64,000 nt of DNA from Bacteroidia bacterium. GTDB taxonomy: Bacteria > Bacteroidota > Bacteroidia > NS11-12g > UBA955. The stretch spans positions 19,657 through 83,656 of the forward strand of contig JBIPNH010000001.1 of the NCBI GenBank assembly GCA_044373665.1, read 5' to 3'. The stretch's first letter is position 1; each line of letters begins with the position of its first letter. Made by a program: the position numbers. Positions 6,001 to 12,000 of the stretch are shown one piece after another.

Positions 6001-9000
6001 GCAACTCCACCAGCAAGGCAGATATTATTGCTTCCAGTTATTCGTTTTGCTTCTTTTGCCATTAATAGCACTATTTCCTCTGTTACTATTTGTATTGCAA
6101 TTGCTAAATTACAATGTTTTTGTTCTAACTCTGATTCTTCATTTCTTCTACCAAATCCAAATAATTCTTCCCACTTACTGTCATAAACCATTCTTAAACC
6201 TGTAGCATAACTAAAATATTTTTGATTAAGCCAAATAGAACCATCTTCTTTTATTTCTATTAAATGATTTTTAATGGTTTTAATAAATTCTAAAGTTTGA
6301 GAATCATTTGGATTACCATAAGGAGCTAAACCCATCAACTTATATTCACCCGAATTAACAGTAAAGCCTAAATAATAGGTAAAAGCTGAGTATAATAAGC
6401 CTACAGAATGTGGAAAATGTAGTTCCTTTAATACGGTTAATTCAGTCCCTTTTGCATGAACGATAGAGGCTGTACACCATTCACCAACACCATCAATAGT
6501 TAATATGGCTGCATCATTAAAATTACTTGGATAATAAGCGCTTGCCGCATGTGACAAATGGTGCTCAGGAAACAATAATTTTACCTTTTTCTTTTCATAA
6601 TGACCTACTTCTTTTAATCCATCATAAATCAGTTTTTTTAAAAACATTTTCTCATTGAGCCAAACAGGTATAGCTTTTAAAAATGAAAGAAGTCCCTTTG
6701 GTGCAAATGAATAGTATGTTTGTAATAAACGTTCGAATTTGAGTAAAGGTTTGTCATAAAATACAATAGCATCCAATTCATCTATTTCCAATCCTGCTTC
6801 ATCCAAACAATATCTAATGGCTTGAGTTGGAAAGTTTGGCGTATGTTTATCCCTTGTAAATCTTTCTTCTTGGGCAGCTGCAACTATTTTACCTCCCACT
6901 ACTATTGCCGCAGCAGAATCATGGTAAAATGCAGATATTCCTAATATTTTTTTCATTTATTTAAAAATTATTTTTACTTAAACTGACTCTAATTTATGAG
7001 AGCATCGCTATAACTTATTCTCTTTATATTCACAGTGACCTCAGTGTTTTTTTTGTGTATTCCGTATTAAACTTACTATGCTCGAAGAGCATCTTTGTGT
7101 ATTCTCTGTGTAACTCTGAGGTTACAAATTCCACAATGTCACACAATGTTAACTCAGTGTATCACTGTGTTTATTTGGTAGTTGGGTTAAAGTCTCTGTG
7201 TAACTCTGTGTAATACTCTGTGGTTATAACTTCCACGTGATTAAGTTTCCCCTAAACCCTTTAAACCTTCTCAACCCTTTAAACCCTTTAAACATATAAA
7301 CAATCACGCTGCACGTCGTGAAACAAATAAACTATCTAAACCTTATCAACCCTTTAAACCTTGTCAACCGTTTAAACGAATAAACAATCACGCTGCACGG
7401 CGTGATACAAATAAACAATGCGATACTATTCGGTCTAAAAGGATTAAAGTTCATTGACTACCTTTATTTACTACTAATAACTGCTAATATATACTAATAA
7501 CTGCTAATAACTGCTAATATCTCGCAACTCTTAATCCCTAAACCGTATCCATAAAACTTTTCTCCACCTTATGGAAGGTAACGATACCTACAAAAAGGAG
7601 CACTAACATATACGAAAAACTAATGGCTAAATTGCCTATGCTAAACACACCCTCACCCAAGAAACCATATTTAATGGCTTCTATAATTGAACTCATTGGA
7701 TTCAATACATTTAACCAAAAACGCAAGTCTTCGGATAAGATACTAAACGGATAAATAATAGGCGAAGCATACATCAATAACTGAACCCCAAAACCAACTA
7801 AGAACGTAAAATCGCGGTACTTGGTGGTAAGTGAACTAATTAATATTCCAAAACCTAAACCCAAACCAGCCATCATTATTACAAAAATAGGTAATAAGGC
7901 AACAGTCCAATTGGGCTGTATAGCGCCCGTCCACCAGTAGTAAAAAAAGACAACTAAAAACAAGATAAATTGGATGCCAAACTTAATGAGGTTGGAAATG
8001 ACAACCGACAAAGGCGTTATTAATCTTGGAAAATAAACCTTGCCAAACATACCTGCATTGCTCACAAAGGTGTTGCTAGTGGCTGTAAGACAAGAGGCAA
8101 AATAATTCCAAAAAGTTAATCCACTAAGGTAGAAAAGTAAAGGTGGTATGCCATCGGTAGAAATTTTTGCAAAATTGCCAAATATAAAAGTAAAAGTAAC
8201 GGTGGTAAGTATAGGTTGAATAAAGAACCAAACAGGCCCTAAAACAGTTTGTTTATATACCGCCACAAAATCTCTACGCACAAAAAGCATCAACAAATCG
8301 CGATACTGCCAAATAGCCTTAAAGTCGATGTCGTACCATTTATTTTGGGGTTTTATTTCAGTGGTGTACATGGGGGGGGTGTTTATTTGTTTATGCGTTT
8401 AGGTGTTTATGCGTTTAGGTGTTTGAATGTTTATGCGTTTAGGTGTTTATGCGTTTAGGTGTTTATGCGTTTAGGTGTTTGAGGGATTAGTTATTTTTTA
8501 GTATAGAATTACGGAGGGCATTAAGTTGATTACTTATTTTTGCTATAATAGGTCTATAAGTATCATTTATTTCTTTTTCATCCATGTATTCTATATCTGC
8601 AGCAATAATGAGAGCGGATAATACTTCCATTAAACTTCCATAAGCATCTTTATATGATTTTGCTTGGTCATTGACTGTTGGTCTTGCTGAACCTTCGGCA
8701 ATATTTAAACTAACTGAAATGGCAGCCCTTCTAATTTGACTTGTTAATCCATACATTTCTTTTGAAGGGAATTGGGCTGATAATTCATAAATCATTTTTG
8801 TCAATACCCTTGACTCCTTCCAAACATCTAACTTTTCAAAAGAATATTCTTTCATAATATAATTGTTTATACGTTTGGGGTTCTTGTTTATTTGTTTATG
8901 TGTTTATGCGTTTAGGGGTTTGGCGTATATTGTTTATGCGTTTATTTGTTTAGGGGGTTGGCGTATATTGTTTAGGGGTTTATGCGTTTAGGGTTATTGT

Positions 9001-12000
9001 TTATGCGTTTATACGTTTATTTGTTTAGGGGGTTGGCGTTTAGTGATAATTCAACAAATAAACACATAAACAACTCAACAAATAAACACCCTTCGAGAGC
9101 CTCAGGGTGACAATCGTTAAACAAACCCTTTAAACCTCCTCAACCCTTTAAACTCTCTAAACAAATAAACAACTCAACACATAAACAAATAAACAAAACC
9201 ACTATCCCCCTTCGATACTTTCGAACCCAAAGCTGTTCGAAAACTCAGGGTGACAATCGTTAAATAAATCGACCCTTTAAACCGTCTCAACAAATAAACA
9301 ACTAAACAAATAAACAAATAAACACCTCAACAAAACCACTATCCCCCTTCGATACTTTCGAACCCAAAGCAGTTCGAAAACTCAGGGTGACAATCGTGAA
9401 ACAATCACGCTGCAAGGCATGAAACAAATAAACAACTCAACACATAAACAACTCAACAACTAAACAATCTCTCATATCAATTTCAATTTCTTATACGAAA
9501 TATTAATTTTCATACTTCCCTGAAAATTCTCGAAATGCACATACACAAACTCAGGATTTATTAACTGATAAACTTCGCCTTCCATCCCTTTTAAAGGACC
9601 ACTTATCACCATTACTTTTCTGCCTTCTGATAATTGTTTGGCGTCAACTTCACTTAGTTCTACCACAAAACCGTGTTGTACTAGGGACTTTATAATATCA
9701 ATTTCGTATTGGTAAACAATTGCTGGCTTTCCATTGAACAGTAAATAGGCCACAAAACTGTCATAGCTTTTCAGTGAATCTATGTTGATTGTTGACTCTT
9801 TGACAAAAACATAAGAATTAAACAATGGCTTATCAATTGTTTTCTGTCTGTCTTTTCTGGAGGATGGTGCTTTAACTAATGGTAAATACACTTCGCTACC
9901 CATTATAGTTAGTTTATCGGCTAACCTTTTTTCATGTCTCGACTTGGTGTATATCACATACCATTTTTCCTTGTTTTTCATATTCAAAGCACCGCCCCCT
10001 CAGTTACATTATCTGTCTGAGTAGGGTCTATTAAAAGTTACTGATACCAACGGTTTCAGCAATTATTTTAGTTTTTATCAAAAATAGTTAAATAAACCTA
10101 TTTTTGATGGTTTTTTTTATCTATTTCTCCCACAATAATAAATAAGAAATCTTTTCATTATTGATTAACTTATCAACTTGTTTTGCATCGCTGTACACTT
10201 GATACTTGATGGTTTTCTCAATTTTTTTCTTAATTTTCAAACACAATTCATCCATAAAAGCAATATCAATTTCCCCAACAATAAGCAAATCAATGGTTTC
10301 GCTGTTTATTCCTCTTGCAAATGAGCCACTTAAATACACTTTTTTTACATCGCCCAATCGTTTAACTAGATAGTCTACAATCCAATCGATGCCTGTATAT
10401 TTTAAGATAATGCTGCTAATATCGTTAAATAAAGGATGCTGCTTGTTGGCTTGATAGATTTTTTTGTTGCCTTCAAACTGCGAATTAAGCATGCCTGCCT
10501 CTTCTAATTTATTCAATTCTAACCTTATAGCATTGGTGCTTTCTCCAAATTCCGATTCCAAATGTCTTAAATAAGAGGTTGTCTCACTGTTTAAAAAGAA
10601 TTTTAAAAGCAGTTTGATACGTGTTTTGGAAGAAATTAAGGTTTCTATCATTTAAATTGAGTAGCAAAACTACTCAATTGTTTGTTGAAATACAAGTACT
10701 ATTTTATTGTAACATGTTATTTTTAATTTAATAGTGGCACTTTACTTCCCTTTACTTCGACAAGCTCAGTACAAGCTCGCTCACGTGACTAGGCTCAGCC
10801 TAGTGGGTAAACTAGCTCAGTACAAGCTCGCTCAGTGACCGCACTTTCGCACACCAAGGTCGTTGAGCGGAGCCGAAACGCCCTTGTTAAAAGGAAACGT
10901 CCTTAAATAGTGTGTGCACTTCGACTCCGCTCAGTGACCACACTTGGGAAACGCCCTTGTTCAATTTATCGAATATTAAGTGTGTGCACTTTACTTCCCT
11001 TCGACTCCGCTCACGTGACTAGGCTCAGCCTAGTGGGTAAACTAGCTCCGTGACCAACTTCCGAAAACCAAGGTCGTTGAGCGGAGCCGAAACGCCCTTG
11101 CATCGGAGTCGAAACAACTTTGCTTGAATTTATCGAAAACTAATTTGGGCACTTCGACTCCGCTCAGTGACCAAGTTTTGTTTTCTTCGACTCCGCTAAG
11201 TGACCGCACTGCCACACACCAAGGTCTTTGAGCAAGTTTCCGCACACCAAGGTCGTTGAGCGGAACCGAAACGCCCTTTCTCAAAGGAAAACTCCTTAAA
11301 AAATCTTAACTGTTCCACAAATTGTATTTCAAAATACAGTAAATGGCTCTGAAGCCATCTTTCCATCCAATTTTTTTGCCTTCCTCATAGGTTCTTCCGT
11401 AATACGAAATACCTACTTCATAAATTCTTATGCGTGGAATGCGTGCTATTTTTGCTGTGACCTCTGGCTCAAAACCAAATCGGTTTTCTTTAAACTGAAT
11501 CGACTTAATGATCTCTGCCCTAAATAATTTGTAACAGGTTTCCATGTCTGTTAAGTTTAAATTGGTAAACATATTGGACATGAATGTCAATATTTTATTA
11601 CCTATTGAATGCCAAAAAAACAAAATACGATGCGGATTGCCTCCCATAAAACGACTGCCATAAACAACATCAGCAACACCATCTTCTAATGGCTTTAACA
11701 AAATATTATACTCGTTTGGATCATATTCCAAATCGGCATCTTGTATGATTATATAATCACCTTGCGCTTTTTCTATTCCTTTGTGAATAGCAGCACCCTT
11801 CCCCTGATTAACAGCTTGCTTGTAAATCTGAATGTCTAAATGTGGATTTTCAGCTTTGTACTTTTCAATCGTTTCTTGGGTTTGGTCGGTAGAACAGTCA
11901 TTCACTATTACTATCTCTCTCTCAATATTGTTCAATAAATTAACCTGCTGAATTTTATTCAATATTAAATGTATGGTGGCTGCTTCATTGTACGCAGGTA

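Follow-up and report, generated by a model that had tools for sequence, protein, structure and literature searches.

Repeat arrays of the window

The 64-kb stretch of Bacteroidia DNA analysed here (the window) holds six intergenic repeat arrays, A to F, and one small fragment, whose modules recur far more often than expected by chance. All were found where an earlier note had placed them from the sequence alone, save for the exact position of the fragment, and the array limits given there are the borders of intergenic spacers. The arrays are made up of short-period tandem repeats, which are octamers of the TAAAC type and decamers of the CACAGAG and TAATAACTGC kinds, and of small hairpins, often one nested within the loop of another. 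The features are:

6957-7537, unstranded: array A, spacer from the stop of the ABC-2 permease gene (wzm) to the carbamoyltransferase start
7064-7240, read on minus: array A, CACAGAG decamers with a GATGCTCTTCGAGCAT hairpin (7078-7093)
7249-7425: array A, two copies of an 84-nt unit of TAAAC-type 8/9-mers, with one H1 hairpin per unit (7303-7321, 7387-7405)
7465-7520: array A, TAATAACTGC decamers
8372-8486, minus: array B, pure TAAAC octamers, 16-nt unit (TAAACGCATAAACACC on minus), ending 9 nt before the wzm ATG
8487-8855, minus: IVP gene, encoding a four-helix-bundle protein (23S_rRNA_IVP / TIGR02436), between arrays B and C
8856-9471, unstranded: array C, two octamer blocks forming mutually inverted halves
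8865-9045: array C left octamers, A/C-rich strand on minus, towards the IVP start
9047-9468: array C right octamers, A/C-rich strand on plus, towards the NusG-like stop; the block contains H2a (9089-9111), a 137-nt unit x2.3 (9158-9467) and H1 (9404-9422)
9208-9254 and 9345-9391: array C, H2d hairpins within the 137-nt unit
9472-9987: NusG-like (UpxY-type) antiterminator gene
10652-11305, unstranded: array D, TGTC-tagged REP-like cores and P1 hairpins
10920, 11000, 11153 and 11186 on plus, 10864-10877 and 11078-11091 on minus: array D cores TTCGACTCCGCTCA
10858-10939 and 11072-11172: array D, REPIN-like inverted doublets formed by the cores
10756: array D, TTCGACAAGCTCA
10782-10808 and 11012-11038: array D, P1 hairpins CACGTGACTAGGCTCAGCCTAGTGGGT
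16840-17373, plus: array E, divergent spacer
16930-16948: array E, hairpin CTCCCGAGCCATTCGGGAG within a CAGAG-type run
16990-17005: array E, GATGCTCTGAGAGCAT
17090-17125, 17147-17188 and 17260-17320: array E, inverted partial H2, H2b and H2c
17326-17368: array E octamers, towards the start of the gene at 17464
23930-24330, plus: array F, between the stop of a gene with an FGE-sulfatase domain and a small lipoprotein gene
23986-24004, 24007-24029 and 24057-24072: array F, hairpin CTCCCGAGTCATTCGGGAG, CACAGAG run and GATGCTCTTTGAGCAT
24154-24172 and 24277-24295 (H1), 24203-24263 (H2c): array F hairpins
24842-25026, unstranded: additional dispersed element of ~185 nt, with hairpins acctcctgaggaggt and cctcgggttttaacccgagg
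25870-25891, minus: isolated 22-nt piece of an array-D module, matching 10986-11007 as its reverse complement (95%)

Against dinucleotide shuffles, the H1 hairpin (ATCACGCTNNANGNNNTGA) has 5 matches where 0.04 are expected, the array-D unit (TTCGACTCCGCTCAGTGACC, <=3 mismatches) 5 against 0, and three phased T[AC]AAC octamers 28 against 0.01. The same repeat families were recovered by a repeat search and by TRF, which gives tandem periods of 8, 10, 16, 84 and 137 nt, and a 15-mer census places nearly all window repeats at 7.0-11.3 kb, 17.2 kb, 24.0-24.3 kb and 25.7-25.9 kb. The sharing of modules between arrays is supported.

Some details of the earlier inventory changed. The duplication reported as a 72-bp unit is real, but that unit is part of the 137-nt tandem unit at 9158-9467, and the fragment is present at 25870-25891 rather than at 25826-25880. 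The gtttatgcgtttagg module and the A-rich 'aaataaac' runs turn out to be one octamer family on opposite strands (inverted repeats I2-I15). The element at 24842-25026, which had been overlooked, has copies within or next to the arrays of relatives (L009, L012/L040, L030, L033, L171).

Dispersal and turnover

Matches to the H1 pattern occur at 11 loci in MAG JBBAKM01, 10 in CAMBXL01 and one in JBILJV01, which is the same species (97% identity), and most H1 loci of relatives are non-orthologous to the window arrays. At least three related MAGs of freshwater Bacteroidia carry modules of the window, at intergenic sites that are not orthologous. The arrays thus belong to a dispersed family of modular, hairpin-bearing intergenic repeats, as first proposed, and are not a local duplication only. 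None of the ~120 module instances checked lies inside an ORF, and no copies of the repeats were found in the viral contigs searched. The orientation bias that had been suggested as a check is absent from octamer runs (19 versus 21 relative to neighbouring genes) and from H1 (15 versus 16). Every counted instance of the CAGAG/GATGCTC block (9/9 and 7/7) has the sense orientation relative to the downstream gene, but these instances represent only ~5 independent sites.

The arrays turn over fast. Array A varies among strains by 10-nt unit indels or whole modules, and such 10-nt indels separate strains with an identical wzm protein. Strain L171 shows 97-98% identity in the flanking genes, but its array D measures 215 nt against ~650 and its array C 325 nt against 616, and its arrays A and B differ in composition. 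Species L040 is without array D (its spacer is 150 nt), and between NusG and wzm it carries other modules and lacks the IVP gene; that gene, found in the window and L171, is part of the same insertion/deletion polymorphism. The orthologue of array E in L012/L040 differs in content. A three-species alignment of array F reveals discrete gain and loss of modules, a ~200-nt block tripled (in L025) and one hairpin within another. For a single hairpin, neither a target-site duplication nor an exact-ended pair of empty and filled sites was seen, apart from a 14-nt insertion at 23987-24000. In L031, a 37-nt duplicated gene end flanks a module block.

In more distant relatives the orthologous operons are compact and lack arrays. 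Because the 176-aa gene and the NusG-like gene head the polysaccharide locus in relatives, array D lies between two units, and the claim that four arrays sit within one operon is not supported. The arrays are not conserved operon spacers but dispensable fillers of recent date, located where genes have been lost or replaced. Copies within a lineage resemble each other too closely for recent spread, gene conversion and selection to be distinguished.

The hairpins and a pan-bacterial class

The array-D doublets fold strongly (z = -3.9 and -3.7) and in REPIN-like fashion, followed by H2a (z = -3.0) and GATGCTC..GAGCAT (z = -2.2); folding of H1 is weak (z = -1.1). Compensatory stem variants between copies (CACCCT/AGGGTG and CACTCT/AGAGTG; ATTAAGC/GCTTAAT and ATTCAGC/GCTGAAT; CCACC/GGTGG and CCGCC/GGCGG) indicate that the hairpins are maintained. 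The H2, array-D and P1 hairpins have a common design in which a TGTCA tag accompanies a covarying stem of 5 bp and a TGAGC..CGAA loop; the window copies of it are degenerate (the stem is 3 bp in array D, and the loop is altered in H2a).

A metagenome scan for H2 ends yielded >120 loci, with a GC content of 0.32-0.73 among the 80 examined; the core TTCGAC-N2-4-GCTCA recurs among them with other stems. Among 134 distinct copies, 87.9% of stem cells are paired versus 66% in shuffles and 26-39% in slid controls, and double-change cells number 129 versus 33±4. At a coding density of 80%, 88 of 101 copies are intergenic, and their orientation is unbiased. H2 and array-D cores are found across phyla, from Bacteroidota to Proteobacteria; H1, CAGAG, GATGCTC and the octamers, the majority of modules, are lineage-specific.

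The H2, array-D and P1 hairpins match a pan-bacterial class resembling the CGTC/TGTC-tagged REPs, which include the Neisseria dRS3/NTS repeats (Di Nocera 2013, PMC3733652), and the NTS/SRM repeats. The latter flank genes for single-domain GIY-YIG ssDNA nucleases (Ssn); the Neisseria and Wolbachia homologues tested cut them, and the authors themselves draw the analogy with REP, RAYT and BIME (Chenal 2025, PMC11893778). GIY-YIG genes picked by protein similarity are embedded in TGTCA-class hairpins on both sides in eight genomes of four phyla (Flavobacterium, Pedobacter, Dyadobacter, a MAG, Abditibacteriaceae and Sphingomonas, and with variant hairpin forms Methylobacterium and Planktothrix), which agrees with the association published for NTS/SRM repeats and Ssn. 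The B. subtilis yazA gene is not so embedded, a search of the 64-kb window and of ~290 kb of related loci turned up no GIY-YIG or Ssn gene, and the published SRM search pattern has 0 matches to the H2, array-D and P1-class hairpins. Part of the repeat family is not unusual in kind, since its best-defined hairpins resemble repeats already described (PMC3733652, PMC11893778).

Octamer polarity and alternative explanations

In 22 of 24 octamer blocks the A/C-rich strand has its 3' end closer than its 5' end to a gene end, often at a distance of 1-30 nt, so that the strand facing the nearest gene end is G-poor and free of start codons. We know of no earlier description of such polarity towards both kinds of gene end. 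Ahead of start codons, G makes up 0-5% of the sense strand, which contains 0-1 start codons and a TAA in each of the three frames (in array B, 5% G and zero start codons), and A/C-rich TAAC-type repeats of differing sequence adjoin the wzm ATG in 5/6 relatives (they do so in the window, L171, L040, L041 and L043). These features hint at a function, or at least selection, at the RNA level. The arrays might be cis-acting RNA elements, their A/C-rich octamers serving as unstructured G-poor leaders or Rho-loading sites and their hairpins with GU-rich octamers as terminators or attenuators, read through by the NusG-like antiterminator. Arrays A and C-right, in their orientation towards genes, indeed give a hairpin and then a U-rich run, H1 with the octamers after it scores as terminator-like, and both the sense orientation of CAGAG/GATGCTC and the TAACTGA heptamers upstream of start codons elsewhere (PMC4679880) are in keeping with such a role. 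We nevertheless consider it unlikely. The polarity is geometric and applies equally to starts and stops, which prevents its assignment to a single RNA function; the hairpin modules lack orientation bias relative to transcription; array C presents both octamer orientations in succession on one transcript; and the arrays are hypervariable among strains and missing from compact orthologous operons. An Rfam search gave no match at E <= 10 over arrays A-D (6900-11400) and none reaching the gathering score window-wide.

Purely local growth, by slippage and segmental duplication in place with no mobility, would account for the tandem periods, the strain-dependent unit numbers with the tripled block of L025, and the duplicated gene end of L031. 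As the sole mechanism it is very improbable, being contradicted by the presence of the same 19-60-nt hairpins at many non-orthologous loci in three species, by H2 and array-D cores in different phyla and by a hairpin nested in another; it is kept as one of two processes. There is equally little to be said for an origin by decay from a known family of IS elements or MITEs. The conserved ends of H2 (ACACCCTT..AGGGTGACA) around variable cargo recall MITE terminal inverted repeats, but they are a covarying hairpin stem rather than a conserved inverted repeat, the units measure 20-60 nt, and target-site duplications and matches in viral contigs are lacking. The window holds no transposase or integrase domain and no IS ends, contrary to what such an origin, considered at the outset, would predict. 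Finally, repeats are present and public assemblies break at or mask the arrays, as might be seen with a CRISPR-like, spacer-acquiring array or with an assembly or binning artefact. Both are refuted: spacing is irregular, no constant repeat alternates with unique spacers and the window has no cas gene, the earlier note having also argued against CRISPR, and independent assemblies from ENA, JGI, Logan and NCBI contain the same arrays (A and B in the first three).

Comparison with known systems

Among the systems compared, the REP/BIME elements of Enterobacteria and Pseudomonas (with REPIN and RAYT) remain the best analogy, as had been suggested. They too are short, strictly intergenic hairpins in both orientations, in mosaic clusters with other short motifs that vary among strains, and the array-D inverted doublets fold to long hairpins in the same way. 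However, the window has no GTAG tag and no RAYT gene, its arrays hold long 8-10-nt tandem runs absent from BIMEs, and hairpins of its family are nested within one another's loops. The arrays are also longer and more composite, as claimed (0.1-0.65 kb, at least 10 module types).

With the CGTC/TGTC REPs and SRM repeats they share a TGTC(A) tag at one hairpin end with an orientation-giving flank, head-to-head doublets, large clusters, a wide phylogenetic spread including Bacteroidetes and, for the class of array-D/H2 hairpins, the position around small GIY-YIG genes. They differ in that conservation lies in a 13-nt loop (TGAGCTTGTCGAA) while the stem covaries, and in that Ssn is seen neither in the window nor in related loci. 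The Aggregatibacter sRNA 41 family (AaHKsRNA41, RF02901), whose consensus contains a long hairpin of GCUGAGCUUGCCGAAGC and its complement, matches TGTCA-class hairpin arrays of metagenome locus L102 below threshold (42.6 bits versus a gathering score of 97, E = 1e-8) and has no match in the window (E <= 10 in 6900-11400; gathering score window-wide). The family has the look of a REP doublet that is transcribed, and not of a gene dedicated to an sRNA.

The cyanobacterial STRR heptamer tandem repeats, reported by Elhai et al. (2008, Genome Res 18:1484) with small dispersed repeats nested in them, are alike in being intergenic, short-period tandem repeats with nested 20-30-nt hairpin insertions and no associated transposase. 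Like them and the TAACTGA repeats, the octamers often lie directly upstream of start codons, although their period is 8 nt (9-10 in some units) instead of 7 and the sequences are unrelated. TAACTGA heptamers are noted at such sites in Beggiatoaceae, Cyanobacteria and some Bacteroidetes (MacGregor 2015, PMC4679880).

Interpretation

The best reading is that the arrays, which fill spacers between the genes of this lake bacterium, are a Bacteroidia version of REP/BIME-type repeats and not a new kind of system. On the best explanation from our analysis, REP/BIME elements and the cyanobacterial mosaics of heptamers and small dispersed repeats would have their counterpart here, in an uncultured genus of freshwater Bacteroidia. 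The arrays are probably non-coding, selfish or near-neutral mosaics acting at the DNA level, shaped in addition by slippage. We infer two processes. TAAAC octamers and CACAGAG and TAATAACTGC decamers would grow and shrink through slipped-strand replication and unequal recombination. Small hairpins would be copied into new intergenic sites in either orientation, even into one another's loops, most likely travelling as ssDNA hairpins handled in trans by an Ssn-like nuclease encoded elsewhere in the genome.

Transcript effects would then be by-products, one orientation yielding a hairpin and a U-run and the other a G-poor, start-free and stop-rich leader, and selection on these by-products may set which orientation persists beside a gene end. 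The repeats would pile up wherever insertion is harmless, among other places at the junctions of a polysaccharide gene cluster that is exchangeable, and their accumulation would give these junctions hypervariable spacers.

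Gene setting and extent of the arrays

The window derives from an uncultured freshwater Bacteroidia bacterium and has a G+C content of 29-40% per kb. A Lake Mendota MAG of the same species, JBILJV01, is 97% identical to its last 2.2 kb, and two related freshwater MAGs, CAMBXL01 and JBBAKM01, are 84-88% identical to its genes. Genes of a polysaccharide locus occupy 1-16 kb on the minus strand, with arrays A-D between them.

Genes and repeat arrays of the window (minus-strand locus in order, then arrays E and F)
minus; ABC exporter, GFO/IDH oxidoreductase, GT2 glycosyltransferase
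10652-11305; array D
minus; 176-aa HTH/nucleotidyltransferase-like gene and NusG-like (UpxY-type) gene
8856-9471; array C
8487-8855, minus; four-helix-bundle 23S_rRNA_IVP gene (IVP)
8372-8486; array B
6957-8371; ABC-2 permease gene (wzm), followed by array A (6957-7537)
minus; carbamoyltransferase, GDSL hydrolase, sugar-modifying enzymes
16840-17373; array E, in a divergent spacer adjoining a HipA/HTH pair
23930-24330; array F, in the spacer between an FGE-sulfatase-domain gene and a small lipoprotein gene

All six arrays are present as the earlier note described them. Hairpin H1 occurs 5 times in the window, against 0.04 expected from dinucleotide shuffles, and runs of three phased T[AC]AAC octamers number 28, against 0.01; the array-D unit occurs 5 times and is absent from the shuffles. 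Repeat finding, TRF and a 15-mer census agree in restricting the family to 7-26 kb of the window, a segment that looks like a variable island. Some details of the earlier description change. The 72-bp unit is repeated, as reported, but is part of a 137-nt tandem unit present 2.3 times; the isolated fragment exists, but at 25870-25891; and the G/T-rich gtttatgcgtttagg and A-rich aaataaac runs belong to a single octamer family read from opposite strands. Since independent ENA, JGI and Logan assemblies hold arrays A and B, the arrays are not assembly artefacts. Masked N runs are found inside arrays of public assemblies (L009 4764-4863, L017 5362-5461), and short-read contigs of the window species (L001-L003, 1.0-1.6 kb, wzm only) stop at arrays.

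A domain search of the 64 kb finds no transposase, integrase, cas gene or Y1 transposase (Y1_Tnp); MutS and MutL are intact. Toxin-type genes are dense (15029-16669, 25086-25661, 25913-26875 and 48760-49797) : besides HipA and its HTH partner there are genes for a zeta-toxin-like kinase, a Fic protein and another HipA_C protein. Cumulative GC skew reaches its lowest value at about 20000-21000, where the predominant gene strand changes from minus to plus; the cause could be a switch related to replication or simply an effect of gene strand.

Composition and dispersal of the modules

The arrays are built from two kinds of block, tandem repeats of very short period and hairpins of 19-60 nt.

Modules of the arrays
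Tandem; NNNT[AC]AAC octamers, with some 9-mers of the CCCTTTAAA type
Tandem; CACAGAGNNN decamers
Tandem; TAATAACTGC decamers
Hairpin H1; AATCACGCTGNACGNCGTGA
Hairpin H2; shell ACAC(C/T)CTT..(A/G)G(G/A)GTGACA, with differing inner hairpins
Hairpin; CTCCCGAGNCATTCGGGAG
Hairpin; GATGCTC-NNN-GAGCAT
Hairpin P1; CACGTGACTAGGCTCAGCCTAGTGGGT
Array-D unit; TTCGACTCCGCTCAGTGACC, in both orientations and as inverted doublets
Complete H2 copies, TGTCA on minus; 9089-9111, 9208-9254, 9345-9391, 17147-17188, 17260-17320, 24203-24263
Dispersed element of about 185 nt, 24842-25026; three small hairpins and a terminator-like start (aagcgttcctcggagcgcttttttt)

Between them, arrays A, C, E and F combine at least ten module types, and many further modules are found in related genomes. 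H1 and H2 invariably lie inside octamer runs, hairpins are nested at loci EUL L008 and L167 (Pedobacter aquae), and the array-D doublets have folding z-scores of -3.9 and -3.7. All six complete H2 copies carry their TGTCA tag on the minus strand, regardless of how the flanking genes run; a replication-related bias, as is expected for elements based on ssDNA, could account for this. The dispersed element, missed by the earlier note, lacks an Rfam match and has copies of 87-92% identity inside or beside arrays at L009, L012/L040, L030 (two), L033 and in L171, another strain of the window species; it may represent either a gene for a small RNA or a further repeat class. After an MgsA-like gene, at 40390-40483, a 47-nt unit (GGGCAGAATATTTTCTGCCC..GGGGTTTTTTG) occurs twice in tandem with 89% identity and looks like a duplicated terminator-like hairpin pair without relation to the arrays.

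A scan of a genome collection with the H1 pattern finds 11 loci in JBBAKM01, 10 in CAMBXL01, one in JBILJV01 and one in an Algoriphagus MAG; the remaining matches, in unrelated genomes, are in line with the approximately 17 that we estimate to arise by chance from the pattern and the collection size. The JBBAKM01 and CAMBXL01 loci are mostly non-orthologous to the window arrays. None of about 120 regex-defined module instances in the window and 19 related loci overlaps an ORF. The repeat family is both genome-wide and lineage-wide.

Conservation of the hairpins

The H2 variants differ by three compensatory double substitutions. A metagenome scan for the H2 ends (ACACCCTTCG..CAGGGTGACA) yields at least 120 loci, from soils, sediments, lakes and the sea, on contigs with G+C of 0.32-0.73 (80 loci examined). 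Among the matches listed, the commonest form is ACACCCTTCGACA(A/G)GCTCAGGGTGACA, and the core TTCGAC-N2-4-GCTCA recurs with other stems. In 134 distinct copies among these matches, the five stem pairs are 87.9% paired, compared with 66% in shuffles and 26-39% in slid controls, and 129 stem cells are changed on both sides versus 33±4 in shuffles. The hairpins are maintained as hairpins. The TGACA tail is also conserved across the 134 listed copies, the positions after the stem reading ACA in 102-119 of them, which is TGTCA on the other strand; the window H2 and array-D units carry the tag as GGGTGACA / GTGACC. Copies are intergenic in 88 of 101 cases among the matches listed, at a coding density of 80%, and their orientation is unbiased. 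The TTCGAC-N2-4-GCTCA core is also found in intergenic DNA of Sphingobium, Novosphingobium, Comamonas, Moraxella and Sinorhizobium replicons, and in the window the core or its ends are carried by array D, the P1-linked units and the H2 shell.

Rfam gives no match at gathering score over the window, and at E ≤ 10 merely chance-level ones over 6900-11400 (arrays A-D). At metagenome locus L102 (4243-4440), arrays of TGTC-tagged hairpins have sub-threshold matches to RF02901 (AaHKsRNA41, Aggregatibacter sRNA 41), whose consensus is an inverted doublet of the TGAGCTTGCCGAA core; RF02901 may describe a transcribed REP doublet. The CCCUGAG..CGAAGGG hairpin was considered as a ribozyme or K-turn, but it has neither a hammerhead core nor a 3-nt bulge and is found in both orientations.

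Turnover at orthologous loci

Turnover of the arrays is fast. Array A shows indels of 10-nt units between contigs with an identical wzm protein. In strain L171, whose flanking genes are 97-98% identical to those of the window, array D is 215 nt as against about 650, array C is 325 nt with one 137-nt unit as against 616 nt with 2.3 units, and the composition of arrays A and B differs. A related species (L040) is collinear with the window from 19156 to 7538, but lacks array D (a 150-nt spacer) and the IVP gene and has other modules between the NusG-like gene and wzm. At the site orthologous to array F, three species differ by a 14-nt insertion creating a hairpin, a tripled block of about 200 nt, presence or absence of the P1 unit, and a hairpin within a hairpin.

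In more distant relatives (wzm 88% and 80% identical) the operon is compact, in the order 176-aa gene, NusG-like gene, sulfatase, UDP-glucose dehydrogenase, wzm, wzt, carbamoyltransferase. The window has arrays B and C and the IVP gene in place of the sulfatase and dehydrogenase genes, and array A occupies the position of wzt, which in the relatives directly follows wzm; no wzt ATPase gene or remnant is found anywhere in the 64 kb. These data indicate that the arrays are recent, dispensable fillers at the junctions within a variable polysaccharide locus, not conserved operon spacers, and the embedding in one operon that the earlier note proposed is not established.

The IVP gene (8487-8855), present in the window and L171 and absent from L040, has an octamer block on either side, the two in direct orientation, and may be a selfish small ORF carried along with repeat-rich spacers. 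The gene beside array F (24408-24806) encodes a small lipoprotein of 132 aa outside any Pfam family, and its paralogues lie at further loci with arrays (L025 1316-1714, L024 4414-4797, L031 2480-2866). Their first 50 residues and upstream DNA are nearly identical and the remainder about 60% identical, which suggests gene conversion, or duplication jointly with the adjoining repeats. At L031 the last 37 nt of a gene, guessed from its C-terminal peptide to encode a TatD-type hydrolase, are duplicated (3128-3165, 3383-3420) around a 255-nt block of modules; the pattern resembles a long duplication of the target or a segmental duplication by slippage.

Orientation and polarity

Modules are oriented without regard to the direction of nearby genes: 19 octamer runs share the strand of the next gene and 21 do not, and for H1 the numbers are 15 and 16. 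This counts against a strand-specific RNA function of the hairpins. The CAGAG/GATGCTC block always has the sense direction of the gene downstream; the independent sites number only about five.

The octamer blocks are nevertheless polar with respect to gene ends. The 3' end of the A/C-rich strand is closer than the 5' end to a gene end in 22 of 24 blocks, a count that overstates independence because some blocks are orthologous. The distance is often 1-30 nt, and the polarity is the same for starts and stops. On the A/C-rich strand G makes up 0-5%, start codons number 0-1 and every frame contains TAA; on the G/T-rich strand there are 2-14 start codons. The wzm ATG is directly preceded by TAAC-type repeats of differing sequence in the window, in L171 and in three other species, reminiscent of the TAACTGA repeats known in Beggiatoaceae, Cyanobacteria and a few Bacteroidetes (PMC4679880). 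A sigma-70 promoter scan, ill-suited to Bacteroidota, finds no excess (53 sites versus 61 in shuffles).

The polarity and the recurrent leaders show that selection, or a polar mechanism, acts beside gene ends. They also favour the main rival to a repeat-element reading, a real cis-regulatory role of the arrays, which we nonetheless consider rather unlikely, the hairpins being unbiased in orientation relative to neighbouring genes. We treat the polarity instead as strand-by-strand filtering of by-product effects, which on one strand would be a G-poor RNA with no start codons and stops in all frames, and on the other a hairpin with a U-run.

Association with GIY-YIG genes

Among the listed matches of the H2-end scan, at least five have a GIY-YIG gene, about 100 aa long, no more than 100 nt away from the hairpins. 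Homologues were then picked by protein similarity, not by proximity to hairpins, and all those examined outside Firmicutes are embedded in hairpin arrays.

GIY-YIG genes lying within hairpins
Flavobacterium sp. LM4 (L166)
Pedobacter aquae (L167), including hairpins nested in loops
Dyadobacter pollutisoli
A MAG
Abditibacteriaceae MAG
Sphingomonas parapaucimobilis
Methylobacterium and Planktothrix, with variant-core hairpins

Hairpins stand on both sides of the gene at L166, L167, L168, L170, L172 and L173, and variant hairpins do so at L174 and L175. The negative control L176 has no flanking hairpins, and B. subtilis yazA, in a conserved operon, is not embedded in them. The Bacteroidota proteins match only GIY-YIG in Pfam and no NCBIfam family (two sub-cut-off chance hits), and their nearest solved structures are UPF0213 proteins.

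This association is already published. Ssn proteins, single-domain GIY-YIG enzymes of CDD family cd10448, are site-specific ssDNA nucleases whose genes are flanked by hairpin repeats, called NTS in Neisseria and SRM generally, and NTS-ssnA-NTS was likened by the authors to IS elements and to REP/RAYT/BIMEs (Chenal et al., 2025, PMC11893778). Earlier, CGTC-tagged REPs, often tagged with TGTC, had been described from five phyla including Bacteroidetes, as head-to-head dimers and clusters then without a known transposase (Di Nocera et al., 2013, PMC3733652). The CGTC-1 family includes Neisseria dRS3 (PMC3733652), within which NTS was later defined (PMC11893778). The published SRM pattern, HGTCWYN(0-2)YYVSBRHN(0-5)WNVSBRGN(0-2)RNCYNB (PMC11893778), has no match in the window and 13 hairpin-rich loci, and it misses the hairpins flanking GIY-YIG genes in the examined loci of Bacteroidota, Abditibacteriaceae, Sphingomonas and Planktothrix (L166-L175). 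The published census therefore probably undercounts the TGTCA-tagged class, and the reach of the Ssn system may be underestimated. The window and about 290 kb of its relatives contain no GIY-YIG gene.

Other candidate partners were rejected. ABC transporters and response regulators recur near the metagenome hairpins by chance because they are common families. IVP genes, found in 2 of the 120 scan loci (L090 and L106, among the matches listed), do not adjoin the hairpins, and the 132-aa ORF beside array F encodes no nuclease but a small lipoprotein that has paralogues.

Relation to known repeat systems

REP/BIME elements are highly repeated, extragenic imperfect palindromes of 20-40 nt, whose clusters alternate in orientation and include other short motifs. 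The window hairpins (H1, H2a, array-D cores and others) are likewise 19-30 nt, outside ORFs and dispersed in three genomes; array D alternates plus and minus cores, and other arrays mix short motifs. The earlier note was right to place the arrays near REP/BIME. Classical REPs bear a GTAG tag and flank a cognate RAYT (Y1 transposase) gene, whereas here the tag is TGTCA and the window holds no Y1_Tnp domain. Cyanobacterial STRR and SDR mosaics reportedly combine short-period tandem repeats with inserted, nested small hairpins; our hairpins within octamer runs, some nested, share this architecture only, the sequences being unrelated. In their tag the hairpins resemble the CGTC/TGTC-tagged REPs, with a TGTC motif at the hairpin end. 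Those repeats have an unpaired tag at one end, an 8-9-bp stem starting with two A/T pairs and a 4-5-nt loop (PMC3733652). With standard pairing, the TGTCA class has a covarying 5-bp stem and a 13-nt loop, a longer stem needing tandem G·A pairs, and its second stem pair is A/T solely in ATTC-type copies.

The data contradict a local duplication alone, a CRISPR array, an IS or MITE remnant and an assembly artefact. CRISPR arrays alternate a constant repeat with unique spacers of constant length and are accompanied by cas genes; here the intervals are irregular, the "spacers" consist of repeats, and cas domains are absent from the window. MITEs and IS remnants have conserved terminal inverted repeats, a target-site duplication and a related autonomous element, but the stem here covaries instead of being conserved, no target-site duplication is seen and the window has no transposase. 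Integron-like cassettes are likewise rejected: there is no integrase, and AACTCAAC probably resembles the RYYYAAC core site by chance. A phage origin finds no match for H1 or H2a in viral contigs. Literature searches with the repeat sequence words and the repeat-encoded peptides FDKLRVT, PELVEG and SEAKDL returned nothing relevant.

Interpretation and significance

The best-supported reading is that the arrays are the Bacteroidia version of REP/BIME-type mosaics. Slippage-prone short tandem repeats would combine with small hairpins of the ssDNA type copied in trans, and both would build up in permissive spacers, making these hypervariable. A more elaborate reading joins the polarity to the nuclease link: the octamer blocks would be selected "gene-border insulators" and the hairpins Ssn-like targets, together a domesticated, locus-specific plasticity system and not junk. 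We regard this as unlikely. If it held, the G-poor, start-free blocks with TAA in three frames would halt incoming ribosomes, Rho would be loaded on untranslated RNA entering a gene, and an Ssn-like ssDNA nuclease acting at TGTC-tagged hairpins would limit or direct recombination of incoming DNA. Blocks and hairpins would then control the exchange and expression of polysaccharide (O-antigen-type) cassettes.

The most distinctive window hairpins resemble a class of tagged repeats already described. The novelty lies in the lineage, a Bacteroidia one; in how composite and nested the arrays are; in their variability between strains within a polysaccharide locus; in the polarity of the octamer blocks; and in a hairpin class that escapes the published SRM pattern. 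In practice the arrays break short-read assemblies, are a cause of fragmented MAGs and give rise to spurious ORFs. The polarity is a testable lead that bears on how the Shine-Dalgarno-poor Bacteroidota shape leaders and 3' ends. The window hairpins match a pan-bacterial TGTCA-tagged class resembling the TGTC-tagged Ssn substrates, a link across phyla. Work on small extragenic repeats is extensive for Proteobacteria and Cyanobacteria, but in Bacteroidota they are, to our knowledge, hardly described. This lineage presents an extreme form of them and a natural test case, with several per cent of the local sequence, at least ten module types and nested hairpins in arrays that differ structurally between strains within a variable cell-surface polysaccharide locus.
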